DNA of 64,000 bases from Oikopleura dioica (lineage: Eukaryota; Animalia; Chordata), in NCBI GenBank assembly GCA_907165135.1, contig OU015568.1, positions 13,950,001-14,014,000 of the forward strand, given 5' to 3'. Every line of letters starts with the position of its first letter. The stretch's first letter is position 1. The notes beneath the pieces are model-generated. The model had not been told where the DNA came from. It made no database searches and was given only the letters and a program-made list of their open reading frames with translations. Positions 21,805-47,962 of the stretch are shown piece by piece. The translations under genes were made by a program, and so were the position numbers.

Positions 21805-24800
21805 ATGTCTTTCGCAAAATCCAAACGAACAACCTACTTCGACGACGTTACCAAAAATAAAGAGAATCTTCCTGGGCCCGAGCGATACAACCCTCAAAAT
21901 GACCAGGTGAGTTTTAATTAAAAAGGAAAAAATTGCTAACCAACATAAATTTCACTAATCTAATTCAGTCAATCTGGGGCTATTACGGTCAAAATGGCCA
22001 GGTTTGTTGAAAAACCCAAATCACTCAAAAATTGGTGTATCTTTGGTGATCAAATAAACTTGCTTGATTGTACTTGAATCGATAACTAAAAAATTATTTA
22101 AAAAAATCTACATTTCTTACTAACCATTCGAACCGTTTTCCCGAACGACATTTAACCATCTTTTAGAGAGTCAAAGGCGGCTTCCAGTACCGCGACCAGA
22201 GCATGATGGACATAAGCAGCATCAGCGGAGCCTACCAAACTGACAAGTCTATTCTTGGTCCTCCTCAATCGACCCCGTCAAAAGAGCCCTTCAAAATCGC
22301 AAAACGAGGGACCAGAAAGTCAACAGTTTCAAAATCGCTCGAAATGAGCATGTCCCAAGAAATGGCCAAATACAAGGTCAGTATTTCGAAAAAAGTTATC
22401 TTTAATCTTGAGCTGTTTTCAGGAGCTCGAGTCGGACCATTTTCAACTGAAACAGCGCTATCAGAAGATCTCCGATTTGAAAGACGAGCTCGAGGAAGAC
22501 TACACGCGAGTAAAGGAAGAAGCGCAAAAAGTTCCGCGACTCCAGAAGCAGCTTGAAGCCTTACAGGACTCGCTAGAAATCAGCAAGACAAAGGTAAGCT
22601 ACCTTTCTTTACTTATTCTGACAGAAGATATCAGGGCGAAGAAGTAAAAATCCTGGAAGATCAGCTGCGCCAGTTGAAAGAAAAAGAAGACGAGACTTTC
22701 AAACAGATCACAGAAAAGGAGTCTCAATTGGTCACGCTCAGAGGTCAAATCGTCGCGCTAGAAGGAAGAATTACAGAATCAGAGGTAAGAGTAAAAATCG
22801 GTGTTTTCATCGTTGATTTCTTATTTACAAAAGAAAAGAAAACTCATTCATCCTGATTCATTTTAAAAAACTTTTCAAGGTCCAATTACAAGAACACAAG
22901 GTTTGTATATTTTAAATGCATGATATTTTCTGATTCATCATTTTACACCATTTATTTCAATCCCACACGGCGCTAGCTACAGGACTTAACAAACTGTAGC
23001 TTGTGCCCCCTGGAATTCACTCATTTTTATACTTTCAGAAATCCATTACCAATTCTTTTTCAGACAACGCTGAAAAACAAAAGCGACGAGTTACAAAAGG
23101 CGAACCTGGCCAACTTCAACCTGGAGCACAGAATCGCTGAGCTCGAGCCACTGAAAGAGAATGTCGCCTTGCTGAAAGAGGACAACGCCGTGTATGCAGC
23201 AGAGATCAACGGGCTCAAGCAAACGCTCGAAGAAGCGCACAAGACGTTGAAAATAAAAGAGTCCGAGAATGCATCGCTCAAGCAGAATATCGGCTCCCAA
23301 GTGAGCGAAACTGACTCGCTTGTGAAGAAACTCGAGCAGATGCGTTTTGAGCGGGATGAGTGCAAGGCGCTTGAGAAGGATCTCAGAGAAGTCCAGGTAA
23401 ATTTGATTTTGACCACTGCTTTTCTAAAAGCTAACTTTCATTTATAGGGAACTACCGAAGCAAAAGTGCGAGAATTAATCGCTTCTGTCGCTGAAAGAGA
23501 AGACCAAATAAAAGTCCTCGAGCAAGAGATCAGAACTCATCAAACCGCGTTGACTAGTGCTTCTGAAAAATCCGCAGCTTCTGAGGAATCGAAGGCGGCG
23601 CAGATCCAGGAGTTGAGCAACGAACTCGCAGGGTTGAAAGAAAACTTGAGCGAAAAGTCAGCCGAGCTTGAAGAGAAACTCTCCGAAAATCAGAAAATCA
23701 GCGAGGCTCTCGAAAATTTGAAGGCAGCTCTTCTCCTGGAAGAAGAAAAGCTCAAAAAAGCCGAGGAAAGCCATGAGAAGCAGCTGAAGGCGAATTCTGA
23801 AGCTCGAGATTTAGAAATAGCTGAATCAGAAGCGAAGATTTCTGAACTTCAAAGCGCTGCCCAAGCGAAGGACTTGCAGATTTCGCAATTCGAAGAATCG
23901 ATCAAGGTAATTATCTATTTAGCACTTTAGTGCTTTTTAAAACTTACTTTACACTGAAAATTTAGGCAACTGCGGCTGAAAATGTCCACTTACTCGAGAA
24001 GATCGAACAATCAGACTCTGCAATGAAAGCCTTCGAGGAGAAGCTCAACTCGGCTGAATCTGCGCAATCTGATCTTTCTTCTGAAATTGCTCGCTTGAAA
24101 GCTGAACTTGAAGAAGCCAAGGCGAAGAATGTCTGTTCTTCTCAAGAGTTCACGGCGCTGAAGGAAGAAGTCTCGACTCTTAGGGCGGCATCGAAGGATC
24201 ATGAAGCGAAATTCGTGAAAATTGTCAACGAGAAACGAGAAATCGCAAAAGAAGCTGAAATTCTTCGAGAGCATGGGTAAACCGTTCGCGATTTTCTCAA
24301 TTAACTTTCTTTCCTAGCGCCAAATACAAGATAAAGCGAGACAATCTTCGAGCCATATACGACGAGCAGCTGCAGAAGACAGAGCAACTAGAGCTCTTCA
24401 AGAAGGATCACGAAGGCACTCTGGCTGCGCTCCAGCAAAAGCTCAAGGCGGCCGAAACTGAGAAACAAAACTTCCGAGCTCAGTTGACCGCTGCCGAGCG
24501 GAAATTGGCCGACGCTACAGATCGGTAAGTAAGAATACTCGATAGTAGTATGTACATAAGCTTTTTTCAATAATGGAGATAATGTAAACAAAGAAAGGTA
24601 AATAATTATAAATATTTATGAAATATATAAACAAGTTAAAATATTTATATTAAACGTAAACATATGATAAATATTAGTAAACTAAATATAAAATATAAAC
24701 ATGAGTCTTCAAAACAAAGGAAGCTCAAAAATAACATAAAAATTTCTAGAAGGTTATTTTAATAACCAAGTTATTCAAATAACTTGTTATTGAAATAACT

Positions 24801-27800
24801 TGTTATTCAAATAACTTTTTATTACGATAACCGTTATTCAAATAACCTTCTAGAAACTTTTATGTTATTTTTTACAAAAACTGTCCCTTGGATGAGACTT
24901 TTCAAATATAAACATGAGTAGGATTTGTATCGGGAAGGCGGCGCGCGGCGTGGCGCTTTTCGCCCAAAATGACGGAAATCTATTTCGCGTAACTTGAAAG
25001 ACTTACAGTGGAAAACCTATGAATATATGAAAAAATTTGAGGCTTGTTCATAAATTGACCTTAAAAACTTAACTTTCCATCAAAAAAGCGTAGTTTTCTC
25101 GAAAATTAAACAAAAACCTGTTTTTTGTGTTTCTAACCGACCTTCCGAATCTCTGATTTTGAGATATGTGAAAGAACAACTTTCTAGTGTCTGTTAAAGT
25201 TTGAAGACCGGGGAAAAACTAGAAGGCTTTCAAATGTCCCGTTAATGGAGTCTTGTATAATAAATTTTTTTCAGAAAAGATTAAGGTGAACAAGTCACAG
25301 AGCTGAATAAGATTCTTTGCCTCTTTTTCATGTCTGTTTTGAATTATTTATTTTCAACTAAAATATTTTCTTCAATAATTTCGCTTGCGTCAATGTTTAC
25401 GACCAGTGTTATTTTTATAATCATAATTGTTTAAAGAAAGAAAAAATAATTTTTGGCTCTACTACAACCGTTTTAAGTTAAAATATTTTAAAACAAAATC
25501 ATTGCCAAGTTATTGATCCAGTGTTTATTGTTGTAAATAAAAGGAGCGGTGAAAGATATGATCGCGTAATTAAGAGAAAATGTCAACGATGATAAGCGGA
25601 GAAATTCTTCCTCAAAAAGAGTTTGCATACCCTTTTCGTATATTGCTAAGTGGATCATCTGGTGCTGGAAAAACTTATATTGCAAAGCAAGTTCTGCTGA
25701 ACAGGCATCTGTTTCAGAAGAAAACAAAGCGGGTCCTGTATTTTTATCCCTGTTTCCTTGAAGAAAAACCCGTTCAGTGGGATGATCTTGGAATTCCTGT
25801 TAGCTATCGCGTCGGTATCCCATCACAGGATGATATTGATGAGATGATGCCCCATACAACGATTGTTCTTGATGATCTTTATGAAGAAGCGATTCAAAGT
25901 CAAGCTATAGATCATCTTTTTCGAGTCACAAGCGGCAAGCGAAGCCTGAACGTTATGATTATGACTCAAAATAATTATGCTGCTGGAAAATTTGGTCGTA
26001 ACATTCGTCTGAACTGTAACGCAACGTTTCTCTGCCGAAACTGTCTAGACGGAACAATCAATAAGAGAGTTTGCAATACAGCTGGGCTGCAAAAAGCGTT
26101 CAAGAGAGCGTCCGAAGATATCAAGAACAAATCATATCCTTACATGTTTCTTGATCAATCGCCTCGAGGTCATGCCTCAAGCTACCGGCTGTACACGGAT
26201 ATATTCTCAAAATATCCTGTTGTCTACTCAGTCACCGGTATGAAGGCTTGCATCGTACCCTTCAACGATTTCAAGCAAAACTTCAACATTATCGAAAGAG
26301 AAAATACTTTCGAAGCAACAGCGAAGAAAGATGACGAAAAATACTCATCGTGCAAAACAATCGAAACATCAAGGGTTAAAGCAAAAACAAGATGTGACAG
26401 CTTTACAGATGACTCGTCAGAGTCGGAGGTTGAGAGGAAAAGAACCAGAAAACGACGAAAGAGATCTGTCCCCGAGAAGAAATCAAAGAAAAAGACAAAG
26501 AAATCCAAGCGAAGACGACCATCAACTTCCTCCGAAAGTGAAACATCCTCAGCAAGCTCAAGCTCAGGTAAAGAATCAAGTGAATCAACAAGCGACTCTG
26601 AAAAAACAGAAGAAGACAGTGACGGATCAGATTCAAGCCCTGTACGAAAACGTTGCAAGCGCTCCAGCGTTCTCAGCGAAAGTAGCGGAGTTTCTCAGGC
26701 AGAATAAAACTCATAGTACTCACCGTCGAATAACTAAAAAACGATTTCCCAGAAGAAAAATCATAGTCGACTCGCCATTCAAAATTTTTATGGGTGACTT
26801 GATTGAATACAAGAAATTCAAATTTTCAAATCGTCAGTATGCTTATGTTCTACTTATAATCGATTGCTTCTCTCGCTTTATATGGACACGACCTGTAAAA
26901 ACAAAAGGAGGAATCGATGTTGCTAACGCTCTCAATGATATATTTCAAGATTTTCTCGAATGGCCTAATTCTCTTATCACAGACGAAGGCTTGGAATTCT
27001 ACAATGTCAATGTAAAAAAAATTCTTGATCGCTATGGAATGCATCACTATAGTATCAAAACAAAATTGAAAGCGAGTATGGCAGAACGAGTCAATCAAAC
27101 CATCAAAAAACGAGTGGAGCTGTTTATGAAATCAAACAAAACTAAAAATTGGATCGATGTTCTTCCAGAAATAGTCAAAGGCTACAATTCCACTCCTCAT
27201 CGAGCCATTGGAATGGCACCAAGCCAAGTCTCACATGAAAATAGAGCACAGGTCTTCGCTCATCTCTTCCCGGATTTCGATTTGAAAGTCAAACCAAGAC
27301 TCAAAATTGGGAACGTTGTCCGAGTAAAAATAGAGAAGGGTATCTTCGAAAAAGGATATACACAAAACTGGACAGACAAAATTTACGTCATAATCGATAT
27401 CAGACAACGAGCCGGAGTAGTTTGGTATAAAATTGCAGACGAAGAAGGAAATAGACAACCTGGAATAAAGTACTACTTTGAGCTTAACTTCGTTGCAGAT
27501 GATCTTGAATCTTTTCGAGACAATGACCAAGGAGCTGAAAGTTCCTGAAATTTTCTTTGAAAAAAAATCAAGAGTACAATGTTCAAATTATAAGCGCTGT
27601 CTGTAATCTGATGACGACTCCGCGTGACATGGACATTGCTTTCATAACGTGTAACTCAATTGCTTCTTGCTATGGAGAACCGAATACGCTGATGATGGGT
27701 CAAATCCGTCCAAACGACAGGTGGTGCCATTTCTCCGACCAACGCTCCGTTACCTTCCCTTTAAACATATATAACTGGCGGGATACACGATTTTCAATCG

Positions 27801-30800
27801 ACTTAGGCAGTCAACACATCATTCAACACTTTTCACTCCAGATACTTATCACAACAAGAGAATGAAAACAATCATTGCCTCGCTTGAAAATCGTCCAAAA
27901 AAATGGTTTCCAAAATCTCAATCCGGCGCGGGCAAACGAAAGTCAAAAAACGGTCCAACAAAACTCAAGCTAACACCAGGTCGAAAACATCCAAATACCA
28001 AAACAAAGAAAAAACGAAATCAAACAACAAAAGATTTGAAAAAATCAAAGAAATCATCGAAAAAGAAAAAAGCATGAACTCATACCTAATTGCGAAACGT
28101 TTAGAACGAGTTGAACATTTTCAAGGTGTTTACTCCATTGATACTTTACCCAAAATTGAAAATTTTCCTTCTTTTATTGTTGTCAACTTATCGCCTGAAA
28201 TTTCAAAAGGCTCTCACTGGATCTCATTACGAATTATAAAGAGTAAAATTGAAATATTTGATAGTTTAGGCCTTAAAAAATATCCTACGCAGCTTTTTGA
28301 CTTTTTTGGTGATAAAGAAACCTTTTTTTATAAAAGAACCCAGTCAGACTCGTCATTTTATTGTGGTTTTTATGTTTGCTTCTTCGTTATTTTCCGTTCT
28401 CTTTATTCACGACAGAAACTTTCTTCTCTCTTTACTCATTCCTTTACTGTTAACGATCAATTACTTCTTTTCAAACTTTCTCAACTCTGGTGACTAAAAT
28501 TGGTGATATAATTGTCTAACTTTTTGCTCTTTTTAGACTGAAATCATGACAGAAGTTGAGTACTACGACCAAAAAGTTGTTAAACGGCATTATCCAAGAG
28601 AAGAGGACAGCTTGACCGGAAGGCTTAGCTTTAAGTTTGACGCCGATCCGAATCTTTTCCTTGTGAAAAATAAAATTGCGATTCATTTCACAATCGAGCT
28701 TGACAAGAATTATATTCCTTCAAATGGCTTTGCTAGCAAACAGTTCGGAAAGACTGAAGTTGCGGTGAATTCTCAGATTATCGATAACTCAAATTCAAAG
28801 TAAGGACTTAATTTTTGTTCTGATAATTATTTTTTCTTTAGTTCTCACTACTTGTTGGCAGACTACTTGACCAAACGTGTCAATTTCGACCCACTTTATG
28901 TTAATTCCGCATTCCAGATTGAGGGGTACTACGATGAATACAACTATGAGAATCTTGTTGATAGTGACTCAAAGAAAATGATTATAAATGGACGACGCCC
29001 ACAATGTTACGAAACATCTAACGGAAATTATATTTATGAACTTATCTTCCTTCCGACTCATGGTTTTTCATGGAGAACAAACCTCTTCCTCAAAACACAG
29101 ATCTTTCAATTACACTTTATCGTCTTAAACATGAGTTTTCGACAATGTTTATCGGAGAGAATGAAACTGATATGCTTCCAGCAGGAGAAGTCCTTAAAAT
29201 AACTGATGCCTACGCTATTGCTGAATACGTGTCATCGCCGAGCCTGAGAAACTACTTTGGGAGAATCAAATCAAAGCCAATCACATATAAATTCAATGAT
29301 ACTTTGATAACAACAATGAGTTTGCCAAAAGGAAGAAAAAATGTGCAACTTCTTAATGTGACTGGGGGAAATACCCCTGCATATCTGTTCTTTGGACTGA
29401 TTCAAACAGAAGCTCTTCATGGATCTTCTAAAATTGATTCTTCGAATTTCAGCTTTTTCAACAATCTTGTTCAAGTGAATGTCATGTTGAATGGTCAATC
29501 TTTAAATGGATATCCTCAGGTTTATCTTTTCAATTTCTTATTTTTTTTTATCCTTATCTTTAGAAAATCACAAATCAATATCCGATTCTTCCCTACTGGA
29601 AATATCTGGACACGCTTGGGCGAGTTAGTCAAGCTGATTTGTCATATGTTGTATCAATGGAAAACTACAAAGTGAACAACATTTTTGCTCATGAGTTTGA
29701 AGGAGAAGAAATCTCACAAGGCTGGCTATCTTTCTCTTTCGATTTTAGCACACCACTTGAAGATGATTACTCAATCGTTATTTGGTCTATCGTCTCGACC
29801 AAGCTCACGATTGACGAACATAAACAAGTTGAAAAAACCCTTCTTTGTAAGTAAACATATAATTAATCACTGGTTATGAATAGAGCACTGATTAACCAGC
29901 GCTTTAGAACTTCTGGTCTTCTTTTGCCCGCTCATCTCATTATCAAAATGTTTGTCACGATCAAAACTTTCACTTTTCGCTCCTACAATGGGGGCGGCTT
30001 TTTCAGGGTCAAGGGAACTTACATTCCTGGTTTTGAAACTGACCTTGATTATTCACGACCGACCAAAGAGATCAACTTACGACTGTTTGCAAAGACTGGT
30101 GATGAAGTCTCGAATGTCTTCCAAGCTCTCCAAATGCACACAGAATCACAACGTCCTGCAGATCTCTACACCACTTCTGATGCCAAACAATCCGACTGGG
30201 AAAAAGAACACAATGTCAAGCCTTCCTACACTTTCCGATTCAATCGTCCAGTCGACCAGAAAATCTAATTGTTTCTGCTTCTTTTGATCCCTCTCTTGAA
30301 AATTTCTTTCCTTTTCTTTTCAATTTTTTATTTACTCGAGTAATAAATTTGTTTGGTGATTATCTCTTTGGTCTTTCTTTGAAGCAAGTTTCTATTTACA
30401 AGCAGGCAATAATCAAAATTTCTGGTTCAGTAAAAAAATATGCTCTCGTATGCCATCAGCTTTTTCGAACCTTATGTCGAAGTTTTATTCACCCGTCATT
30501 CGAAAAATGTCCTTCTTGAATAAAATCAAAAAGTTTTTTTGCGGGTATGCTAACTCGACTACAGAAACTATAGAAGTTACTGCTGAAGAAGCTGCGATTA
30601 TGAAAGGTCACAAGAATTACGAGGATCATAGACATCCAGAATGTCTTATCTGTGCAATGCTTGATGGATATGTAGCGAAACGTTTGAAGAACTGAACAAA
30701 ATCATTTTCCATTTTTTTTTAAGAAAAACAAAAATGTCAAAAAAAAAGAAACTGCGGTGTATTCTTCCTGTACATAAAATTGGTGATAATAAAATTGGGT

Positions 30801-36800: not shown

Positions 36801-39800
36801 GATACTCGTAGAAATTGATTTCTCTCTTCATTTCAGCAGAAATTTTTGAAAGATTTCTTGCAAATACATCTTTTGGTCCATCAAAAATATCAAACCCGTC
36901 AATCTTGAAAGCAAAATCTAATTTCGATGAGCATTTTTTTGCTCTCACTAATTTTTCCAAAACAGTTTCAAACGTGTAGTAATAAAAACAATCTTCCTTC
37001 TCTTCCACAAAGATGCTTGTTTTAGTTATCAAATTATCGTCAGCAAATTTGATCTTGATTGACTGTTTCGACATTGATCTTACCCGCACAATTTCAAGTT
37101 GATAAAACGCAATAATTTCTTCATTTGTTTTAGAAGAATTACAAATTGTCAATGACTGACAGTGTGCTAGAAATTTTCTGTCAGAAAGCTTACCATCTTT
37201 GAAAAATTTCTTGAATTTCTCTTTGTGTTTTTGTATCTCTCCTAAAGCTATCCAAGGATTAATTCCCGGAAAAAAGAAATTAAAGCGTTTCATAAGCTCC
37301 TTACCCTTTCCGGTTCATTTTATCTCAGACTTTTCCAGCAGACTGATTTTATCCGATTTGCATGCTCATCAACGCTCATTGATGGCGCTAAAATAGGAAG
37401 TATAAATTATCGAAAATATTTCTGTTCAAACTGAAAAATGCTCGCTGTTAAGCTTGTCAAAATAACAGACGAAGATGCGATAATTTACTGTCGCATATGT
37501 CGTAAGAAGACAAGTCTATCTCCGACATTCAGAGAAGTCACTCGTGCTCAGCTTGAAACAAATTCAGTGCCTGGTGGACAATGTAAAGACTGTTTCGGGA
37601 GATGGTACTATCCTTATACAAAATCTGAATGGAAAGAATTTATGGATAACGCAGATGAATTCGCCGAGGAGTGTTTTGTTGCTCGATCACCGCTTCTCCC
37701 GAGATTACTTTGTCGAACTTTTTCTCCGGGTGCCTGCATTGGTACAATTATAATAAGATCTCGCCAAATCAAGCTTGCATCACGAGAAATCTCGGAGGAT
37801 GAAAAGAAAAAATGCGTGATATGCTGGGAAGAAAACAAACAAATGGTAGTTAGCAAGACTGATATTTTGATAACAAATTTTAGGATCCTACACCCTGCCT
37901 TCACTACACGTGCGCTGATTGTCTAAGAACGCTCAAAGCGGATCCTGAGGAAGAAAGGAACAACAGATGCCCTATATGCCGGACTGATTTCGAATACCGA
38001 AATATCCGCCAAATCATCCGAGCTGAACGACGCCTGTAATCATCGTCATTGTTGTCTCCTTAGTTTCTTTGTTCTTTTTTTCATCCAATTTCTTGTGCAA
38101 ATTTCGACAAATAAATTCATTAGATCTAAACAAAATCTTGTGTTTCTTTATCTCAGCTTTACAATTTAGTCTCTCAAGTATAAGGCCCTTTTGAGTCGAA
38201 GTATTCAATTAAAATATTCGCAAACTTAATTTACTGAGATTACTGATATTCTTGAACTCGCAAAAACCTTTTCTGGAAATTCTAAAAGACCTTTTGTGAA
38301 ATTCGAAAAAGACCAAGGTCCGAGAGCAAGAAAACCTCTGTTAAAAACTCAAAAACTGTCCTCAACTCAGTAATACCTCCGGAAACTGGCCTGATCCTAT
38401 GAAAACCTCGAAAAACTGGTCCGAGCCTAGAAATACCTCCAAAAACTGACCTTAGCTCAGTTATAACTCTGGAAACTCGCCTGTTCCAAGTAAAACCTCT
38501 GGAAACTGGTCTGAGCCGAGTAATACCTCTGGATACTGGTCGAGCCCAGTTATACCTCCAAAAGCTGGTCTCAGTTCAGTAATACCGTCGGAAACTGTCC
38601 TGAGTCCAGTCAATTCCTGAAGACTGCTCTTCATCGAACAAGGCCCTTTATTTGCTTGAGTCAATCCGTAAACTATAAAATATATTTTTCCTGTCATTTT
38701 ATTTGCAATAAAGATGAGAACCTTTTATCTTTGAGAGCTTGTTTGTCTTTTATTTTTGTTTTAAAGGCACATTTTTCTACAGGAAGCTTATTATCACGAA
38801 TGTTTTTCTTGGCGGTTTGAAGAAGCTGCGTCTTGCTCTGGATGAATCTAAATAAATGATTAGGTTTTTGCCTGCGAATTTGTTTTCTTACCTAATAGCG
38901 TTTCTGTCTGTGACAGATTTGTAAGGGTTGAGTGCGCGTCCGTCGGCGTTGTGGTCTGTTGGCCTCTAATTTGCGTTTATTTTCTGTTTGGAAGAAAGCT
39001 TATTTTACCTTCAGCTTGATGATCCTCAATTGCCGGGCGCTGAGTGATATCCATTTCGTCCTCACTCTCCAATTCTTCGATTCGATCCGGATTCCGAATC
39101 ATTCGAATTCTTCGGGGCTCACGTTGTCTCTGTCTATTTCTTCCGTCTATTGAAAACTTTAGAACTCCTTTGAAAGATTTGATTTCTTACTTTCGTAGAC
39201 GATATAGAAGAAAAGTAATAGGATGAGAATAGCGATGACGCGATCATTCGTGCGCACACGTCCTTTTTGTATGTCGACATCGAATTCGAAGTCATCGTCT
39301 GGATTTGTACATTCACCCTCTGGGTTCGAATGATTTCTGCTCTGATCGTCTTGCTGTCTGCCTTGATCCGGGAATCCCTCTCCGTTTCGGCCATTGTTTC
39401 GATTTGGGCCACTGAATCCTTTGAAGAATGGAAAGAACATTTCTGAATGGAAAAACTGTCTACAATATTCTAGTTTTAGTTTCATATCAGTATTCAAAGA
39501 CAGCTTTTCTCCTTTAAGTGGCAGGTTTAAATGTCGAGTGGAAGTGGTGCTGAGATCGGCGTGTAGTGAACTAAGAATATATTTTATGAAGGCGAAAAGG
39601 AATGATAGAGATTACCGTTTCTTGTTGGCTTAGGTGTCTTCTTCTTCTTGTGGCAGAGGATGAGGATCAAGGTGAGAAGGAGAATAGTGTTGAAGGCGAG
39701 GAGGGTGATGACGATCATTTCAACCATGGAGAAGGTTTTTGGCGTGTTGTTTTCGTCTATTCAAGGTAAGAATCTTTTTGTCTATCTACTTTTACCAAGT

Positions 39801-42800
39801 TGGTTGACGTTTGAAGTTTCATTGATAATGGATGACGTAGCAGTCGGTGGTGTCCGTGTAGAGGTGATATTTGCCGACTCGTTACCGACTATTTATGTAA
39901 AATTCTGTTTTTCATTAATTCTTACGAAGACGGCATAGCTCGGAGACGGTTCGTTCATCATAGTAGTCCCATCGATAATCTTGGTCAAACTCCGACGAGT
40001 CGTCCATCGCGTCACGATTTTCAGTCTTATTTATGAAAGAATTTTATGCAATCTCTAGCGATCTGAGTTTCTTTCACAGCCTAAACATTGTCGGGGTTCT
40101 GGGTCGACGGAACAAGAACCAGACAAGGTTGATGAAGGGGAAAATCGCGAAAGCCAGTCCAGCAAGGTAGATGATGAATGTAGCGAGAAGACCAACGCAT
40201 TGAATCGCGAGAAAGACAAGGATCGAGGATTCGATGAAAGTGAGACCTTTTTTTAATTAAGTTAAAAATGAAAGAGTTTTCTGTTTTCTTTTTACCTCTT
40301 TGCTTGTTGACTTGCTGCTCAAGGTCCGAATCGTGAACGTCGTCGCCTTCGTAATTGTCCATTAGCCCAGATTACCGATTCAGTCTTTTATGCAAAAAGA
40401 TGTTATTTATTCACTTTCTTTCTAATTTAATCATTCAAAAAACATTCTTTTCACAGTCCTTTTTCAATCACCAACTGTCGATCCATTCTTGCCAGGATAC
40501 TTGAGGGCACCTCCATTCGTCCTTCTTGTCCTCTTTGTCATCTTCTTGCTGTTCTGTCTGCGTGTTGCTATCCACAGTCGGTTTCCGTCCGTCTTTCTTT
40601 TGCCGTCTTTCATTCAGAATCATTCGTTCTTCGTCTGCGCGTCTGTTTTGCAATTCGAGGTCGCGTTCTTCTAAGAAGACTTTTTTAGTAATAAAATAGG
40701 CTGATCTAACTACCTTCATTATCACAGCAATGCAAAACAAGCACTCTCCGTAAGTCAACCCAGAAGGAGATTATTCGAACTCGTCTTTTGTAAATGAGGA
40801 TTGCGAGCATGACCACTATTATAACCGAAACTGGGGCTAGAATGAAAATGAGAATGATCTTTCTATGTAACTCAATTAACCCGCTATTCCGACAGCGATT
40901 ATTTTTCCATTGAAAATTTCGTCGGGTTCGATTGTATTCGTTGAGGTACCATTGGTAACGGTCGAAAATGTGTGAGTGGTCGACGTTGATCCAAGAGAAG
41001 TTGTAGATGTTGTGTCCGTTGTGTGACCGGGGAACGTCAAAGGAGGGTGGATTGTTGGGAAAAAAAACATTCTTAACTCTTTTCGACTTTATTTTAACAT
41101 AATTTTCAGCTGATTTTATTCAAAATAGGGCATAGATTTTGAGATGAATTTAGTTTGCTTGAAAGAACAACTGCCTGAAACCAAGTTTACATCAAAATCT
41201 ACATCCCAGTTCAATTATCTTCAGCGAAAAAAAAAGAAATTTGTAAAGCAGGTCAGATAAAAAGTCGAAAACAGTCTTTGAGCGTCAATTTGGCGGCTAA
41301 TTCATATCGGTTATTATAATTTTGGCAAGTGGAAGAATTCTTTGAACGTTAATTTAACTCTTATTTCATATCGCCTTGTCTTATTGGTTGTAAATAAATG
41401 ATAAACGCAAAATTAAACCTTTCTTGTTTCTTGAGATGCACTCTATCGTCCAAAGCCTTTGTTACGCTATATTAGAATTTTATTAATCTGTTTTTTCTTT
41501 TTTTTTTTTGTTGTAATACCTTGTTTCGGATAAGTCGCATGTGGACGAATTTTGCGTGGAACATTTTGTCGTCTCTATAAGAATGTCTCTTTAGATTAAT
41601 ATATTAAGCCATTTTAAGTCAATCAGTTTTGAATGAAGAAAATAAAAAGGTTGATTGTCTCGTGATCTTGTTTGCGCTGTATGGCAACTTCAAGTTATGA
41701 TCTGGTGATGAACCTGCATCAGGTGGTTTGATTTTATTGCCTACGCATTCGAGGGTGAAGGAGCGTGCTCAAAACTCGCGCGCCCTGCGGTTCTCGCTAC
41801 CGATTCGCCGATTCATCCCCACGCGCTTAAGACTGCGAGTAACAGTAAAGCGCGCGCTGCTACAGATTCTCCACTCGGCCAGGCGCCAAAAACTTGCATT
41901 CTTTACACATTTTTGATAAGCGTGAGAAACCACCTATTCCCACGAGAACAAAGATGATAAACCTGCAAGATCAAACAAAGATACTAGATACGAATGAAGA
42001 GAAAGATCTCATAAGCAAAATCGAACAGGGAGATCTTGCTGCCCTCATCAAAATTCAATCTGAATTAGGTACTTTTATTTTCATCTATTCATTTATAAAA
42101 CATAATAGATGCCAAGCAGGCAGCTTCGACTTTCATCATCAAGATCACTAACGGTCAACTTGCAGAGTTGCAAAAAATCGTGACAGGTAAATTTCAATCG
42201 TGAAAGAAAAATGACTTATCTCTCCTCAAGAAAAGATCGCGTCTAAAATGGATACTACCACGGAGGATCTGACTGAGGTAATGGAAATGGAAACTTCCGG
42301 CTCTGCTAAATCTGACGATATGGACACAAACTAGGTAAATTTATGTCTCTTTTCCGATCAGAAATAAGCTCTTTTTACGGTTCCAGCTCAAGCAACCATT
42401 ATTGAGTAATCATCCGAAGCATAAAAACAATTCTCCTCTCCTCGTTGATTCCGACAATCACCACTTCATTGAAAATTTTCTCCAGTTTGTTCCTGACGCT
42501 ATTGATAATAGATAAATCCGCTCGTTAATAACTATCAAAACCGCTTATCACACCAGTTCATTTTCTTTTGAGTTCTTAAAGATACCTGCGCCACTTATCG
42601 AAAAAGTTCTTCCCTCTTTTATAACCTGCTATTATAATTCAAATGAACAGTTCCTCAATAATTTAATTGAAATAAAAAAGAAACTCGGTCATATATCTAC
42701 TTTGTTTTTTTTTTTTGTTTTATTTAAACAAGAGTATTATGGACGGCATCAAAAGGTTCTGAAATCGTGATATTCTCACGTCGGTCAGGATTTTTTCGGG

Positions 42801-45800
42801 AAACATTCTTCTTTTTCTCACAGATGATCATACACAATTTTGTGTAGAAGCCAACTGTGATGATAAGACCAATGAAGGCAACGCCGGAAACCCCAGTAAA
42901 GAAACGATGCTGGATTGAAAGAAGTTGATCTTTGAGCTCGCAGATAACATCGAAAAAAGGAAACTCTTCCGAAAGTGGAAGTGAGCGATTCATTTTTTTT
43001 TTCTGATTATTTTGGACCTTATCGTTGCATATTTATGGACTTTTCAGTGCTTATTATCAGTGCTTTTTTCAAACTTGGCAACAAAATGACAAAGTCAAAG
43101 TTTTTTAAACACCATTTTTATTTATAATTTTTTCGGTAAACATGAGTAAATAAGGACAAACACGAGATAAAGAAAGAACACCAAGAAACGCATAAAGAAA
43201 GGTAGAAGTTAGAGTTGAGTGTATGTTTTTATGGGCGAAATTGTGGGAGAAGGATCGGAGTAGGCTTCTTGTTCATAGATGGTCTCTTCGATAAACTCTA
43301 TGGCATCTTTTGTGATAATCCCAAATCTGAAACAGTCATCAAGTGTTTCACCTAAGAGATATGGGCTGAGACAGTGATCAATGATCGTGTCCGGCGTACC
43401 TCCGCGTGAAGGATTTTCCAGTTCTGATTGAAGTTGCTGTCTTTCTCTCTCCTCTGCTTCGGCAACCAACCCATTGATCATGTCATCGTCAACACTGTCG
43501 TCGTCGTCAAAGGTATCAGTGAGATCGATAACTATGAAAATATATTTATATATCTTTTTTTTTAATAATAGATACCTTCTGACCCGTCTTTCATATGACC
43601 ATCGACGTTGATTTTCCGATCAGGAGAGCCTGTTAAGTCAATAACTGAATCATGATAAACAATCTGGTAGAAAAATGTCTCTAACCTTGATCGTTTTTGT
43701 TTTCAGCAGGTGCGGCGAAGCGGATAACGCTTCTCCCGAAGCGCTGGTTAGGATCGTAGTCAGGTGGAGGTGATTTACCGATGATTTCCCATTGGGATGG
43801 ACTCCAGAGTTGCCATTTTTGAGACTTCTGCTGATCATCTTGACGTCGACAGCTTGATTCAGGACTGCCCTGGATCAGTTGAGAGCTTGGTCCAGGAGTG
43901 TCCTCGATCAGTTGAGAGCTTGGTGTAGGAGCGTCTCCGATCAGTCGTGAGCTTGATCTAGGTGTGTCTTCGATCAGTTGAGAGCGTGGTGATGGAGCGT
44001 CCCCGATCAGTCGAGAGCTTGGTCCAGGTGTGTCTTCGATCAGTCGAGAGCTTGGTCCAGGGGTGTCTTCGATCAGTTGAGAGCTCAACTCACCTTCGGT
44101 TTGAGAATTTTGTCCTGAGTGATGGTCTTTGTTATTGACATCATGAGCAGGCTGAAAGACTTCTTCTTCCGACTCGTAGTCCTCAACGTTTGAATAATCG
44201 TCACTCTCTAAAGCATCAGGCTCATTTTCGGACTCATCTTCCTGTTGATTGTTTTCTTCTAAGTCGTCAGCGGTATTCTTTTGCTTTTCTTCGTGTCGTG
44301 TATAACCGAAACTATCACGAGTTTGCTCATCCTCGATGTCATCGAAAACGTTTCTTGGTTGGACAGCTTCTCGGCGGACTCGTTTTGAAGGTTGTTCCGC
44401 GGCTTCTTCCTCTCGCAGTCTCTTTGAGGAATGGGCTTTTTTCTGCTTGAGTTTATCCTGACGCGCTTCCTCTGAAGACTTGGTTTCCTCCTCGGAGTCA
44501 AAGACCAAACGCCGTCTCGCGCCTAGAAAGTTTTAAAACTCTTTCGTAAACACCATGATATACCGCGAAGATTCGACCTCACATATGAGAGTTTTTCCTT
44601 CCGGGGAGCTTTTGGAATGGAATTACCTCGGGTGTGGGGAGGTGTGGTAGGAACCCATTCTTCATCACACGAGTCCTCTTCAGAGGAAGACTCATAAGCG
44701 CTAGAAACGTCACAATCGATCTCACTGCTAAATTCTTCGAGAATGTGTTCGAGCCTGAGGTTGCACTGGGAGCTTTTATCAGTCATATCAAGTGTCCCCC
44801 CTGAAAATATGATAAGATAATAAGAATCGTATTTTTGTCTACTTACGTAAATCACGAAGGACTGGTTCTTTGTCCTCGACATTTGCGAGTTCGTCCTCAA
44901 ACTCGCTAGCAAGTCGGTCTGTTTCATTGCGGTAATTAATATCTGCTTTTTGTATCTTCTTGAGAATTTTCAAGCACTTAGCCATTTTAAAATTTGACAG
45001 ATAGGTCAAATTTTGCACGATATTTATACGGACTGATCTTCAGCGCCGACGTAGATTTTTTGGCACACTTGTTTATCAACGCCAATTACCGGTTGCTTTG
45101 AAAATTCAAGCGATCATTTGTTCAAAATGTCAGTTTATTTTCCAGCGTTTGAACAAATTCACAATATTTTATTGACTCTGGACCTATATTGACTCAACTC
45201 ATGCATATTTTTCTTTGATGTATTTATAAACAGTGTCAAAGGACGTTTCCTCTTTTGAACTGCATGAGATCTGGTCTAAAACGAAAGACCACTTGTAAAA
45301 ATATCGCCTTAGCTCAATAATATCTCTCAGAAATCTGTCCGATCCCGAAAATACCTCAGAAATCTGTCCGATCCCGAAAATACCTCAGGAATCTGTCCGA
45401 TCCCAAAAATACCTCAGATATCGCCCCGATCCCAAAAATACCTCAGAAATCGCCCCGATCCCAAAATACCTCAGGAATCGCCCCGATCCCAAAAATACCT
45501 CAGGAATCGCCCCGATCCCAAAAATACCTCAGGAATCGCCCCGATCCCAAAAATACCTCAGGAATCGCCCCGATCTCAAAAATACCTTTCAGAATCGGTC
45601 TGATCCCAAAAATACCTTCGGAATCGGCCTGTAATACTTTCAAAAGCTGGTCTGAGCCCAACAATACTCCGTTTCAGCTTGAGCTCAGTCCACATGCTGG
45701 ATAAAATCTCTCATTCCAATAACACTCTGTAGCAGCTAAGAACTCGATATTGTTGCTCCTATTTCTGAGCTGGACTTCTGCGACCCTGATAATTTTCCTT

Positions 45801-47962
45801 TTTAACTTCATGTTAACACTTTTTTCTTGAATAGAAAAACGACTTATTTATATTTGAGATAATTTATTAAGGATATCCAATGACGATGACAATAAATAAA
45901 TATCAAGCTTCATTTTACAGAAATAGAAACATTGAGAGTAGCTTACAAAGGAATAAGTGCTTTAGAGTTTCATTTTACTTTTTCTTAGAAGTATAAGTAC
46001 TGTTCATGCTATTCATCTTCTAGTTTCATTTTATGTCGAGTGTGAAGATTCTTGCCGCTCGAGCGAACTTGATTCGAAAATGAACCAAAAGAGGGAGCCA
46101 CATTCTTTGAGATAACCCACTGAGTCCGTCTATTTGTTTTACTTCTTTGAAACGGAAATCGATTAGTTACTTGATCCTTTGAAAGATGAAATTTTGATCC
46201 TGATGATTAGTTCTCATAAAAATGAATTTCTTACTATGTTTGGATGGCTAATGTTACATGTAATAATGAAGAGCAAATAATGAAGAAGTTTCATCATTTT
46301 AGTATCCAGAAAGTTTTTTCATTGAAACTTTATCTGAAAGAACGAAATAGATTTCCGTCATTTTGGGTGAAAAGCGCCACGCTGCCCGTCGCATTCCCGA
46401 TACAATCCCTACTCATGTTTATATTTGAAAAGTCTCATCTCAGGGTCAGTTTCGGGTCTCAAGGGATTCGCCTGCCCCCGAACAGGCGGGTGACAAAAAT
46501 GATCGGACCAAGCGGGTGACAAGCCGGCGATGCTCGAACTGCCCATCTCCGCAGGGAACAGCGAGTCTCGGTTGGTCTTATTTTTACAGAGGATCAAGAT
46601 TATTTTCGACCCTAAATTTTTAACGGTAAGTTCTCCTTTGTCAGATTTCTATTGCTAGAAATTTACTCTTTTCTGTTAAGGCTACTGAAAAGATCTCTGG
46701 CAGCAAATTTCCAGAAAAGTTATGTTTTTACCATAAAATGATGAAAGATAAGAAGAGATCAGCTGGATAATTAAAAAAGACTTTTCAAACGGAAAAAGAT
46801 CACACGACAGCTAAATTATAATTAGATTACAATAGGATGAACTTTGATGGAGGTTTTATTGAATAAACTCAAGTTTTCAGAAGTTTTGAGTATGATTTTC
46901 GGAATCTCCATGGTCGAATTAGTATAAATCACTTTTTCCTGAAAATTTTTGAGCAAAAATGCTCATGGCCCTCCGAAAAGTGAGCCTTGTGCAGATCAGC
47001 TGGACCGTCGCAACAAACGTCTGATTATGATTTTCCTCGGTGGATTAGCGATTTCCCACTGAAACTCGCTGTTTTTGTTAATAAACAACATAAAAGTTTC
47101 TAGAAGGTTATTTTAATAAGTTCAAGTTATTTGAATAACGGTTATCGTAATAACAAGTTATTTGAATAACAAGTTATTTCAATAACAAGTTATTTGAATA
47201 ACTTGGTTATTAAAATAACCTTCTAGAAATTTTTATGTTATTTTTGAGCTTCCTTTGTTTTGAAGACTCATGTTTATATTTTATATTTAGTTTACTAATA
47301 TTTATCATATGTTTACGTTTAATATAAATATTTTAACTTGTTTATATATTTCATAAATATTTATAATTATTTACCTTTCTTTGTTTACATTATCTCCATT
47401 ATTGAAAAAAGCTTATGTACATACTACTCTCGATGAGTCGGTTTTGACATGTTTTCAGCACTACGGAAATCGAAGATCTCCACGTTAAATTGGCGGAATC
47501 AGATGCCATGTGCGAAAAGTGGAAGGCGGAGTACGAAGAGCTCGAGAACTTCTACGCGCCGATCCGAGCTGATCTCGCTAAATTCGCTGAAGAGAGCAGA
47601 CACTGGGGGTAAGTCAAATCAAAAGTTAAAACGTTGTTACATGAACTGTTCAGCTCTGAAAACGAAAAGAAGTCGAAGGAGTTGGCAGCTCTGAACTCGA
47701 AATTGGCGGACCAGATGAGCCACGCCAATCACAAGCAAAAGATCAAGTACATGGTAAGTCAATGAATTCAAGAGCGCCTTGTTCACATTCCTTTCAGAAC
47801 AAGATCAAAGACGAGAACGAGCTGCTCAAGACCAAACTGTCCTTCGCCGAGTGTCAGATGAAGAAGCTCAAGAAAGAAAACGACGCTCTTCGTGATGACC
47901 TCAACGTCGTCCGAAACGTACGACGCTTCGACCCCAAAAAGGCTTTCCAAGGAAAGCAATAA
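21805..47962 (+). CDS. HMMR: Hyaluronan-mediated motility receptor (RHAMM) coiled-coil spindle protein, split by the Polinton insertion in intron 24525-47458
   Basis: N-terminus MSFAKSKRTTYFDD...PGPERYNP, long coiled coil, C-terminal HANHKQKIKYM-NKIKDENELLK...RRFDPKKAF motif; exons join in frame across the insertion (DR|TTEIEDL). Confidence 0.85.
24544..24878 (+). repeat. Left terminal inverted repeat
   Basis: Reverse complement of ~47072-47428; the right copy has an extra ~19-nt segment and a few substitutions. Confidence 0.93.
25580..26707 (+). CDS. Polinton A32/FtsK-like packaging ATPase, with Ser/Lys-rich tail overlapping the integrase frame
   Basis: Walker A GSSGAGKT, Walker B IVLDDL, then SGKRSLNVMIMTQN typical of Polinton ATPases. 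Confidence 0.92.
   Translation: MSTMISGEILPQKEFAYPFRILLSGSSGAGKTYIAKQVLLNRHLFQKKTKRVLYFYPCFLEEKPVQWDDLGIPVSYRVGIPSQDDIDEMMPHTTIVLDDLYEEAIQSQAIDHLFRVTSGKRSLNVMIMTQNNYAAGKFGRNIRLNCNATFLCRNCLDGTINKRVCNTAGLQKAFKRASEDIKNKSYPYMFLDQSPRGHASSYRLYTDIFSKYPVVYSVTGMKACIVPFNDFKQNFNIIERENTFEATAKKDDEKYSSCKTIETSRVKAKTRCDSFTDDSSESEVERKRTRKRRKRSVPEKKSKKKTKKSKRRRPSTSSESETSSASSSSGKESSESTSDSEKTEEDSDGSDSSPVRKRCKRSSVLSESSGVSQAE
26331..27548 (+). CDS. Polinton retroviral-like DDE integrase
   Basis: FMGDL, YVLLIIDCFSRFIW, LITDEGLEF, ASMAERVNQTIK, YNSTPHRAIGMAP; C-terminal VRV...FEKGY...NWT module. Confidence 0.95.
   Translation: MTKNTHRAKQSKHQGLKQKQDVTALQMTRQSRRLRGKEPENDERDLSPRRNQRKRQRNPSEDDHQLPPKVKHPQQAQAQVKNQVNQQATLKKQKKTVTDQIQALYENVASAPAFSAKVAEFLRQNKTHSTHRRITKKRFPRRKIIVDSPFKIFMGDLIEYKKFKFSNRQYAYVLLIIDCFSRFIWTRPVKTKGGIDVANALNDIFQDFLEWPNSLITDEGLEFYNVNVKKILDRYGMHHYSIKTKLKASMAERVNQTIKKRVELFMKSNKTKNWIDVLPEIVKGYNSTPHRAIGMAPSQVSHENRAQVFAHLFPDFDLKVKPRLKIGNVVRVKIEKGIFEKGYTQNWTDKIYVIIDIRQRAGVVWYKIADEEGNRQPGIKYYFELNFVADDLESFRDNDQGAESS
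27499..27865 (+). CDS. Candidate minor capsid (penton-like single jelly-roll) protein; needs a 1-nt correction in the A8 run at 27560-27567
   Basis: MILNLFETMTKELKVPEIFF + EKNQEYNVQIISAVCN...AFITCNSIASCYG...FPLN...FSIDL...FSLQILI; beta-strand pattern and position between integrase and protease; family assignment is inference. Confidence 0.4.
27862..28077 (+). CDS. Small highly basic protein, candidate virion core protein
   Basis: 71 aa, 27 K+R versus 2 D+E, contains QSGAG; ATGA overlaps with both neighbours. Confidence 0.6.
   Translation: MKTIIASLENRPKKWFPKSQSGAGKRKSKNGPTKLKLTPGRKHPNTKTKKKRNQTTKDLKKSKKSSKKKKA
28074..28493 (+). CDS. Adenain-like cysteine maturation protease
   Basis: GSHWISL (His), IEIFDSLG (Asp), TQSDSSFYCGFY (Gln, Cys); ATG at 28074 within ORF 27903-28493. 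Confidence 0.92.
   Translation: MNSYLIAKRLERVEHFQGVYSIDTLPKIENFPSFIVVNLSPEISKGSHWISLRIIKSKIEIFDSLGLKKYPTQLFDFFGDKETFFYKRTQSDSSFYCGFYVCFFVIFRSLYSRQKLSSLFTHSFTVNDQLLLFKLSQLW
28546..29854 (+). CDS. Polinton major capsid protein (double jelly-roll), ~407 aa, two introns (28800-28841, 29520-29563) and a 1-nt deletion in the T5 run at 29064-29068
   Basis: Joined frame gives ...KPLPQNTDLSITLYR...GGNTPAYLFFGLIQTEALHGSSKIDSSNFSFFNNLVQVNVMLNGQSLNGYP..., matching the recalled Polinton MCP pattern; size and position next to the protease fit. Confidence 0.78.
29876..30268 (+). CDS. Polinton hypothetical protein, 130 aa
   Basis: ORF 21 nt after the MCP stop, same strand. Confidence 0.5.
   Translation: MNRALINQRFRTSGLLLPAHLIIKMFVTIKTFTFRSYNGGGFFRVKGTYIPGFETDLDYSRPTKEINLRLFAKTGDEVSNVFQALQMHTESQRPADLYTTSDAKQSDWEKEHNVKPSYTFRFNRPVDQKI
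30450..30695 (+). CDS. Polinton hypothetical protein, 81 aa (HxxHxxCxxC motif)
   Basis: ORF with DHRHPECLIC; small, so uncertain. Confidence 0.4.
   Translation: MPSAFSNLMSKFYSPVIRKMSFLNKIKKFFCGYANSTTETIEVTAEEAAIMKGHKNYEDHRHPECLICAMLDGYVAKRLKN
30960..31358 (+). CDS. Polinton hypothetical protein, 132 aa
   Basis: Open frame with CPVC near the C-terminus; last gene of the plus-strand block. Confidence 0.5.
   Translation: MFLQKVESFSCTSYRSGVLLNIVGICGDDENSSQKVRLHYTSVNVTNNVLAFEKIAIMNKNRKSGKESWIPVQILGTAPKKVDDEQNNIVSSYFVDFKDFTLKYERQDLSDDCPVCKTKDVFRWIQKEDNEL
31546..31700 (-). repeat. 29-bp tandem array (GAGGTATTTTTGGGATCGGGGAGCTCAGA), ~5 copies
   Basis: Direct reading; the core is the reverse complement of the 45320-45640 unit. 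Confidence 0.95.
31755..32590. repeat. 19-bp minisatellite (CTCTGACCCCTTGACAGGC variants) with higher-order blocks
   Basis: About 40 units; variant ACTGGCCTTAGTCCACCCTG recurs at multiples of the unit length. Confidence 0.95.
32720..33265 (-). CDS. Polinton hypothetical protein, 181 aa, downstream of pPolB
   Basis: Clean ATG-stop ORF with TATAAA 24 nt upstream. Confidence 0.75.
   Translation of the reverse strand: MPFYQSERVDLEAIRKEYGGTYIPLSKEELEYFEKTEKMGQLQNRVIIAPPKPGRIVEHAHVRLLINKNFDLFNVVDDLFEFISPPFRFGIDFAFLLENPVTEDPDSRFRFVWPQISTSLPIEPNLIKNKSSKKEFLQNIPDWTDIPRLVDITHQNQSMFRKSGYNITKLLTCSLYITKMK
33379..37293 (-). CDS. Protein-primed family B DNA polymerase (pPolB), five introns, 1-nt deletion at 35946-35950; true start uncertain
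   Basis: ExoI FVTFDIET (made by splicing), ExoII FNSSGFD, FKDA, motif A DFNALY, motif B KTIGNCGGFGK, motif C YCDTDS, PGLLKSE, KRSTKGV; introns 36393-36434, 35427-35472, 35156-35201, 33919-33961, 33708-33750. Confidence 0.95.
37438..38039 (+). CDS. RING-HC (C3HC4) E3 ubiquitin-ligase-like protein, 187 aa, one intron (37846-37883)
   Basis: After splicing: CVIC-x11-CLH-x2-CADC-x17-CPIC; extra N-terminal CxxC pairs (CRIC, CKDC). Confidence 0.85.
38350..38620 (+). repeat. Degenerate ~30-bp tandem array (AATACCTCYGGAAACTGGTCTGAGCC-like)
   Basis: About 8-9 diverged units sharing AATACCTC with the other arrays. Confidence 0.85.
39159..39497 (-). CDS. Polinton small protein with one hydrophobic segment (VIAILILLLFFYIVY); likely spliced to downstream exons
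   Basis: ORF plus a GTAAG donor right after the hydrophobic stretch and an acceptor near 39146. Confidence 0.45.
   Translation of the reverse strand: MNTDMKLKLEYCRQFFHSEMFFPFFKGFSGPNRNNGRNGEGFPDQGRQQDDQSRNHSNPEGECTNPDDDFEFDVDIQKGRVRTNDRVIAILILLLFFYIVYESKKSNLSKEF
39582..39970 (-). CDS. Polinton candidate type-I membrane glycoprotein (Ser/Thr stalk with NES/NIT/NET sequons, TM IVITLLAFNTILLLTLILILC, KKKK)
   Basis: Exon fragments read by hand; one junction is off by one base, possibly the A5 run. Confidence 0.45.
40710..41070 (-). CDS. Polinton candidate mucin-like single-pass membrane protein, intron 40837-40880
   Basis: Thr-rich HTTDTTSTTSLGSTSTTHTFSTVTNGTST; splicing yields TM IIAVGIAAPVSVIIVVMLAILIY followed by KRR. 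Confidence 0.55.
41954..42334 (+). CDS. Polinton hypothetical acidic helical protein, 98 aa, two introns (42069-42108, 42187-42230)
   Basis: Both GT-AG introns keep the frame to a stop at 42332-42334. Confidence 0.65.
42724..42993 (-). CDS. Polinton small single-pass membrane protein, 89 aa
   Basis: FFTGVSGVAFIGLIITVGFY hydrophobic segment then basic KKK; TATA-like motif 39 nt upstream. Confidence 0.55.
   Translation of the reverse strand: MNRSLPLSEEFPFFDVICELKDQLLSIQHRFFTGVSGVAFIGLIITVGFYTKLCMIICEKKKNVSRKNPDRRENITISEPFDAVHNTLV
43209..44985 (-). CDS. Polinton acidic disordered protein with RxL motif, 11-aa repeats and two VIDLT SIMs; at least 4 introns
   Basis: Start MAKCLKILKK at 44985; introns 44801-44846, 44523-44563 and 43532-43575 keep the frame; the junction near 43665-43730 is unresolved. 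Confidence 0.65.
43850..44090 (-). repeat. 33-bp coding tandem repeat (SSQLIEDTPGP x~7)
   Basis: Direct reading of the DNA and of ORF 43681-44508. Confidence 0.9.
45320..45660 (+). repeat. 29-bp tandem array (CGCCCCGATCCCAAAAATACCTCAGGAAT), ~10 copies
   Basis: Direct reading; inverted relative of 31546-31700. Confidence 0.95.
47072..47428 (-). repeat. Right terminal inverted repeat
   Basis: Reverse complement of the left TIR, ending ...GTACATACTACT. Confidence 0.93.

Follow-up and report, generated by a model that had tools for sequence, protein, structure and literature searches.

A young Polinton of Oikopleura dioica with probable spliceosomal introns in its polymerase and capsid genes, at positions likely inherited from an old element lineage

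The core genes of Polintons (Mavericks) are usually described as intron-poor, and the available portions of the vertebrate and nematode papers agree with this description: intact vertebrate Mavericks are reported to be without introns, in line with Kapitonov and Jurka (PMC8097293), and in nematodes the core genes are intronless, with introns in cargo genes only (bioRxiv 2022.07.12.499685). Since a 64,000-nt stretch of O. dioica contig OU015568.1 (hereafter the window) holds a capsid-encoding element in which short GT-AG segments interrupt the genes for polymerase and capsid protein, two questions present themselves, namely (i) whether these segments are introns that the host removes, and (ii) whether they were gained in this element, as proposed in the original prediction of a Polinton rebuilt with host-style mini-introns. 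The element is a young, multi-copy O. dioica Polinton. From our point of view it is probable that the host spliceosome removes the GT-AG segments in the genes for its polymerase and capsid protein, for which splicing is very likely, and that these segments owe their positions to an old lineage of Polintons with introns, which is likelier than a gain in this copy.

That the element is a Polinton is borne out by its termini, its gene set and the double-jelly-roll family of its capsid protein. The terminal inverted repeats (TIRs; 302 nt, 99% identical) and the 6-bp target-site duplication (TSD) fit the definition adopted here, with TIRs of 100-1500 bp and TSDs of 5-8 bp as given in the available text of PMC10748475. 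The predicted span of 24544 to 47428 was correct at its end and one base early at its start, which lies at 24545 (Table 1). The insertion occupies a phase 2 intron of an HMMR-like host gene, whose HMMR_C match (E=0.015) stays below the cut-off, and reads of RNA run X9, from a diverged lineage, cross the host exon junction at the insertion site, with a loose end at 24500. As a side effect, the intron is stretched from 44 nt to 22.9 kb in a genome with a median intron of 49 nt.

Table 1. Coordinates of the element, its genes and the homology-supported introns (positions in the window; fractions are metagenome loci having the intron out of those covering the site; FR, placed by frame restoration only)
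Feature	Position	Strand	Remarks
Host intron holding the insertion, HMMR-like coiled-coil gene	24525..47458	+	44 nt without the element
Left TSD	24539..24544	+	6 bp
Complete Polinton/Maverick	24545..47428	.	22,884 bp; AGTAGT termini, TIRs, TSD
Left TIR	24545..24846	+	302 nt, 99%
Packaging-type ATPase	25580..26707	+	intronless; low-complexity tail; Walker A/B read in sequence
rve integrase	26331..27548	+	intronless
Penton candidate	27523..27865	+	position and size only; frameshift near 27560
Adenovirus-like protease ORF	27888..28493	+	intronless
Major capsid protein (MCP) gene	28546..29854	+	2 introns; frameshift near 29063
MCP intron 1	28800..28841	+	42 nt, phase 2; also in L001, L003, L006
MCP intron 2	29520..29563	+	44 nt, phase 0; also in L001, L002; absent from L003, L006
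ORF	29867..30268	+	homolog in L001
Tandem arrays between the two gene blocks	31518..32600	.	29-bp and 19/20-bp units
Conserved gene downstream of pPolB	32723..33283	-	homologs in 10 loci
pPolB (protein-primed DNA polymerase B) gene	33379..37314	-	5 introns; frameshift near 35945; start uncertain
pPolB intron 5	33708..33750	-	43 nt, phase 1; 15/15
pPolB intron 4, directly past motif C	33919..33961	-	43 nt, phase 1; 10/18 (L004 uncertain)
pPolB intron 3	35156..35201	-	46 nt, phase 1; 2/8
pPolB intron 2	35427..35472	-	46 nt, phase 1; 3/7
pPolB intron 1, at ExoI	36393..36434	-	42 nt, phase 1; 3/4
C3HC4 RING gene	37438..38039	+	finger interrupted by intron 37846-37883 (38 nt, phase 0)
Predicted membrane-protein gene	38892..39440	-	introns 39190-39147, 39008-38966 (phase 1); FR
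Predicted type I membrane-protein gene	39527..40007	-	introns 39925-39889, 39795-39757, 39615-39571 (phase 1); FR
Thr/Ser-rich (mucin-like) membrane-protein gene	40468..41070	-	introns 40880-40837, 40713-40671 (phase 1); FR
98-aa gene	41954..42334	+	introns 42069-42108, 42187-42230 (phase 1); FR
534-aa acidic protein, SIM-like motifs	43209..44985	-	introns 44846-44801, 44563-44523, 43685-43645, 43575-43532 (phase 1); FR
Right TIR	47126..47428	-	
Right TSD	47429..47434	+	6 bp

The element belongs to a young, multi-copy family with several near-identical copies; its youth follows from the nearly identical TIRs, the intact TSD and these copies. DNA runs X1 and X2 contain it with the intron segments retained, and in run X2 its contigs reach a depth of 480-626 as compared to 116-137 for the host flanks, about fourfold. 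The three named O. dioica MCP models form one cluster at 90%, a 150-aa piece of the capsid protein matches a named model from the OKI2018_I69 assembly at 100% identity, and the closest pPolB proteins are gene models of that same assembly (46-69% identity), so that the host belongs to the Okinawa lineage of O. dioica. Three single-base frameshifts in homopolymer runs, in the penton candidate, MCP and pPolB genes, are probably long-read errors, since short-read contigs of run X1 or X2 disagree with the window at these sites.

The plus strand carries the genes for ATPase, integrase, penton candidate, protease and capsid protein, and pPolB lies on the minus strand. The integrase matches the rve domain PF00665 above the cut-off (E=1.2e-9), and the ATPase and the protease show matches below it (Pox_A32, E=0.075; Peptidase_C5, E=0.012), with motifs and position that fit. 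Among PDB sequences the protease ORF found no match, nor did the penton candidate in Pfam. The double jelly roll of the capsid protein is supported by the MCP relative P0205, which, folded from 63 sequences (pLDDT 89.8), matches the MCPs of SGIV, PBCV-1, mavirus and Sputnik with E-values down to 4e-14, and with whose family the window gene aligns end to end; a single-sequence fold of the O. dioica MCP model (pLDDT 33) was uninformative. The window pPolB exon by itself gave no Pfam match. Its identity is supported by DNA_pol_B_2 matches in 6 of 14 aligned relatives (best E=9e-10) and by the Exo and Pol motifs read in the window. The large pPolB exon also holds an inserted nuclease-like stretch whose motifs resemble the VSR type, and for which Pfam and PDB searches returned no domain match. 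A VSR insert is described for marine pPolB2 Polintons in the available portion of PMC10748475.

Between 38892 and 41070 three or four small predicted membrane-protein genes, one of them mucin-like, stand in tandem, without a homolog in the metagenome loci. The element further encodes both a RING protein and, separately, an acidic protein with two motifs that we take to be SIM-like, a pairing which presumably recalls the viral SUMO-targeted ubiquitin ligases that counter silencing.

All of the at least 14 GT-AG introns claimed originally can be placed, and the present model contains 21, of 37-46 nt. In 17 of them the length is not a multiple of three, and the remaining four hold in-frame stops. 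The counts for pPolB (five), MCP (two), the RING gene (one), the gene at 41954 (two) and the SIM-motif protein (predicted at three or more; four modelled) agree with the prediction, and so does the absence of introns from the ATPase, integrase and protease genes, which are unbroken in the window and in the relatives L001 and L003. The mucin-like gene does contain an intron, but two are modelled where one had been counted; likewise, the ExoI motif and the RING finger straddle splice junctions as claimed, but so do two SIM-like motifs and not only one.

Evidence for introns comes from homology. A purpose-written spliced aligner with a profile of 13 pPolB proteins of ENA origin, all with unbroken ORFs (P0006 and P0031 cover all five junctions, some others end early), recovered blind all five claimed pPolB introns at 42-46 nt, plus the frameshift; it also called one unneeded in-frame gap of 123 nt in an open, poorly conserved stretch. 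When five wrong dinucleotide rules were imposed instead of GT-AG, 30-107 nt were still removed at or near the same five places, with scores of 808-874 as compared to 888. The pPolB segments are thus insertions by homology, with GT-AG as the best fit, since the wrong rules cut at or near these places at a lower score. Both MCP introns were recovered blind with a profile of 21 ENA ORFs that are unbroken at both sites, and in L003 and L006 the coding sequence runs uninterrupted across MCP junction 2; the unbroken ENA proteins could themselves stem from spliced transcripts and not from intronless DNA. In the RING gene, positions 1-19 of the Pfam profile zf-C3HC4_3 match before the intron and positions 18-47 after it, in a different frame. 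The segments have GT-AG ends, are absent from homologous coding sequence and restore the frame upon removal, as spliceosomal introns do.

Public gene models point in the same direction. AUGUSTUS models, which are predictions, splice the same MCP junctions and the homologous pPolB junctions, and those of OKI2018_I69 were trained with RNA hints according to the available text of PMC8008620. GenBank likewise contains an O. dioica polymerase model of 1465 aa (AAS21407.1) in spliced form. From these sequence comparisons, it is very likely that the core-gene segments are introns spliced by the host.

The second question, whether the introns arose in this element, was addressed with a metagenome scan, which yielded 19 loci at 28-76% identity, 18 of which were analysed (L018 was dropped because of poor alignment). 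At the window's profile position and in its phase, all five pPolB introns recur as GT-AG introns in some or all of the covering loci (Table 1), with unrelated-looking sequences and other lengths, and the relatives carry additional introns that the window lacks. The last pPolB intron keeps its exact position and phase in every covering locus across about 30% identity. Trees were built from 82 of 83 and, in a second analysis, from 26 sequences. The O. dioica clade is united with a sister clade (SH-aLRT 98.5), and in both of them the last two pPolB introns are present. The last one also occurs in a third clade, which has AT-rich introns of 47-240 nt; the placement of this clade is weakly supported, as is that of the unbroken P0006 and P0031. 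As distant relatives have introns at each of the five positions in pPolB and the two in MCP, most core-gene introns appear to be old traits of the element lineage carried by a copy that is itself young, and the notion that this element was rebuilt by intron gain does not hold. Some of the shared positions could be parallel gains, since several different positions crowd around motifs B and C.

The size of the introns corresponds to that of the host, as had been claimed (37-46 nt as compared to a host median of 49 nt in the available text of PMC8008620). Among the relatives, most loci of the O. dioica clade have introns of 37-48 nt and most of the sister clade of 42-56 nt; the last pPolB intron alone measures 40-43 nt, 43-50 nt and 159-240 nt in the O. 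dioica, sister and third clade, respectively. That intron length follows the host is shown for O. dioica only.

Many related database proteins end where introns would be expected. Of the related pPolB proteins, 47 of 165 end at motif B (profile 940-959) and 18 of 165 at motif C (1040-1049); 44 of 107 MCP matches start at profile 70-99, at or just past MCP intron 1, and 28 of 107 end where L006 and L007 have an intron. These ends presumably mark places where gene callers ran into introns, the sources having been checked for some of them. Three side observations concern the same loci and proteins. In the related pPolBs there seem to be several separate breakpoints, some no more than about 12 codons away from motif B and others around motif C, which suggests intron hot spots or sliding at catalytic motifs. 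L011-L017 form a marine Polinton clade with long, very AT-rich, TA-repeat-like introns of 47-240 nt. In L004 (2860-3420), about 560 nt interrupt pPolB past motif C, and the copy has a frameshift and a stop; it is probably a decayed copy with an insertion.

It is, however, conceivable that the introns are real but recent, each host having acquired them several times over at hot spots, through mechanisms of its own or of the introner kind, so that the shared positions arose in parallel. O. dioica is known for intron turnover. The patchy presence of some introns (2/8 and 3/7 loci) and the clustering of several different positions a few codons at most from motif B or motif C would agree with such a history, and introners are reported, in the available portion of PMC11957031, to colonise polinton-like elements of dinoflagellates after integration. 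Nonetheless, we regard recurrent gain as improbable. An exact agreement of 15 of 15 loci in both position and phase, at such low identity, would be hard to arrive at in parallel, the phase distribution is unlike that of the host (uniform in Oikopleura according to the available part of the review PMC3488318), and the introns share no sequence: no family was found among the 21, the best pair scoring 13 as compared to 12.4 in shuffles, on which ground an introner origin is rejected. Introns are weakly enriched at conserved columns, with p 0.21-0.32 when the five introns of the window are taken and p 0.03-0.10 when 19 distinct positions are taken, and a model in which introns target catalytic motifs is hence not claimed. 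Inheritance within an old lineage therefore remains our preferred reading.

For the 13 introns of the five accessory genes, the evidence is frame restoration only. The splice-site score by itself does no better than chance, with 50 calls in the element as compared to 34-52 in 10 shuffles, and for this reason these introns stand less firmly than the eight homology-supported ones. One could thus argue that the core-gene introns are real and most of the accessory ones over-called or misplaced, as they lack homologs and AT-rich GT-AG segments are common. We consider this slightly less probable still than recurrent gain, because all 13 are in phase 1 at 37-46 nt, each chain yields a single open frame from ATG to stop, and a blind codon-and-splice scan found 7 of the 13 donor sites in the same phase.

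The RNA runs used come from a diverged lineage and are hence no test. For positions 33301-43300 no RNA run was listed. Runs X9, X6 and X8 placed 2, 0 and 1 partial reads, respectively, on positions 32700-45250, and no splice joint was seen on the element; in X9, 96 of 174 reads were less than 90% alike and all of them fit only partly, so that the runs are silent on expression and splicing alike. Run X12 looks like DNA. A few diverged poly(A) reads of X9 partly fit the integrase-penton region (27180-28037) at a depth below 2, and may stem from the transcription of a related element of some other lineage. That the segments are never spliced and represent insertions in a dead element, with frames restored on paper only, is very improbable: the missing splice joints come from these uninformative runs, and the three frameshifts and the chance-level splice score are outweighed by the GT-AG ends that many divergent elements have at the very same codon positions, open and conserved flanking exons, young and multiple copies, and other runs that disagree with the window at the frameshifts.

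In one respect the introns are not host-style. Their size and ends are, as predicted, but 18 of the 21 modelled introns, including every accessory one, lie in phase 1 (p=1e-6 if one third is expected, p=7e-4 if one half is), and a blind scan called phase 1 in 8 of 31 host introns as compared to 10 of 16 in the element (p=0.026). Proto-splice-site composition was rejected as a cause, as it predicts at most 47% phase 1 where 86% is observed. Such a surplus suggests that new introns pass through a filter peculiar to the element. One could tentatively speculate that this filter acts through read-through, our preferred guess but one that we rate as possible and doubtful: in an in-frame intron with GTAA...TAG ends, phase 2 would bring in a stop at the 5' end, phase 0 would do so at the 3' end, and phase 1 alone would keep the ends stop-free, such that at an early, weakly spliced stage only new introns in phase 1 would survive. 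Present-day lengths show no excess of multiples of three (4/21) and offer this guess no help.

If the introns are spliced as proposed, the production of pPolB, MCP, the RING protein and the accessory proteins would need nuclear transcription by the host RNA polymerase II and splicing, and the element would thus depend on the host spliceosome, which the original prediction had also envisaged; integrase, ATPase and protease would need no splicing. Inheritance of the introns would be vertical in the lineage of the element, some being gained and others lost along the tree, with a sequence that drifts freely and a length drawn to the range of the host spliceosome. In a wider form, the proposal would be that a marine lineage of Polintons that encode a capsid, at once deep and widespread, is active today in larvaceans and relies on the spliceosome for polymerase and capsid, with introns that are inherited, resized by the host, filtered for phase 1, and responsible for hiding the lineage from ORF-based surveys; we see the chances of this wider proposal as evenly balanced.

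With the animal Polintons and Mavericks described in the available portions of PMC8097293, bioRxiv 2022.07.12.499685 and PMC10748475, the O. dioica element shares TIRs, a 6-bp TSD, pPolB, rve integrase, a putative ATPase and protease, a double-jelly-roll MCP, two gene blocks and the range of 13-25 kb, whereas its pPolB and MCP genes are split by five and two introns and theirs are reported as intronless. The dinoflagellate maverick-polinton-like elements (PMC11957031) have spliceosomal-type introns inside full-length capsid-encoding elements in common with it. However, as far as the available text goes, those introns are repeated, transposon-derived families that mostly entered after integration, in contrast to introns without shared sequence at positions conserved across a deep clade. 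The public O. dioica models (AAS21407.1, CBY15127.1 and OKI2018_I69 models such as CAG5101999.1) already join the homologous pPolB and the same MCP exons, but they are unnamed and often fused predictions, none of which our literature search found described as an intron-bearing Polinton.

Polinton anatomy, introners in polinton-like elements and unnamed spliced gene models of O. dioica are therefore already known. What appears to be new is a Polinton lineage with old, position-conserved and phase-1-biased introns of the spliceosomal type in its core genes. Searches on Polinton, Maverick and adintovirus introns and on Oikopleura and larvacean Polintons, consisting mostly of listings and with the founding papers and Repbase outside their scope, did not bring up any account of Polinton core genes with spliceosomal introns that are conserved, and a term look-up in the available text of PMC8502044, PMC5718144, PMC9004415, PMC4028283 and bioRxiv 2026.10.13.758929 gave nothing on spliceosomal introns in Polinton genes. 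As far as their available portions go, a pPolB genome survey excluded Chordata (PMC10748475), protist PLVs contain group I introns (PMC12220804), and for Oikopleura Mavericks are listed as a TE class without detail (PMC5240408).

Endogenous viruses have been assumed to be intron-free for gene calling with prokaryotic tools (available text of PMC10120064). In the databases of such surveys the relatives of this element are for the most part pieces with ends at intron sites, so that a whole branch of endogenous DNA viruses is probably undercounted. IMG/VR scans and one GTDB scan found no relative of the element, an absence that for IMG/VR is weak evidence. With few genes of known intron presence and absence in a cultured animal with tiny introns, the gain, loss, resizing and phase selection of introns become testable, and the predicted tie of capsid and polymerase expression to nuclear splicing would constrain how the element could act as a virus.

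Lastly, several repeats were observed in the window. Within the element, inner inverted repeats of 110 nt (91%) lie at 24878-24987 and 46343-46452, and 29-bp tandem arrays, related and oppositely oriented, at 31518-31700 and 45290-45620. In the host DNA, an identical direct repeat of 300 nt (14832-15131 and 18227-18526, 3.4 kb apart) perhaps represents the ends of another mobile element, and a 56-bp tandem array with an internal hairpin (52028-52290) is flanked by a 64-nt inverted repeat.
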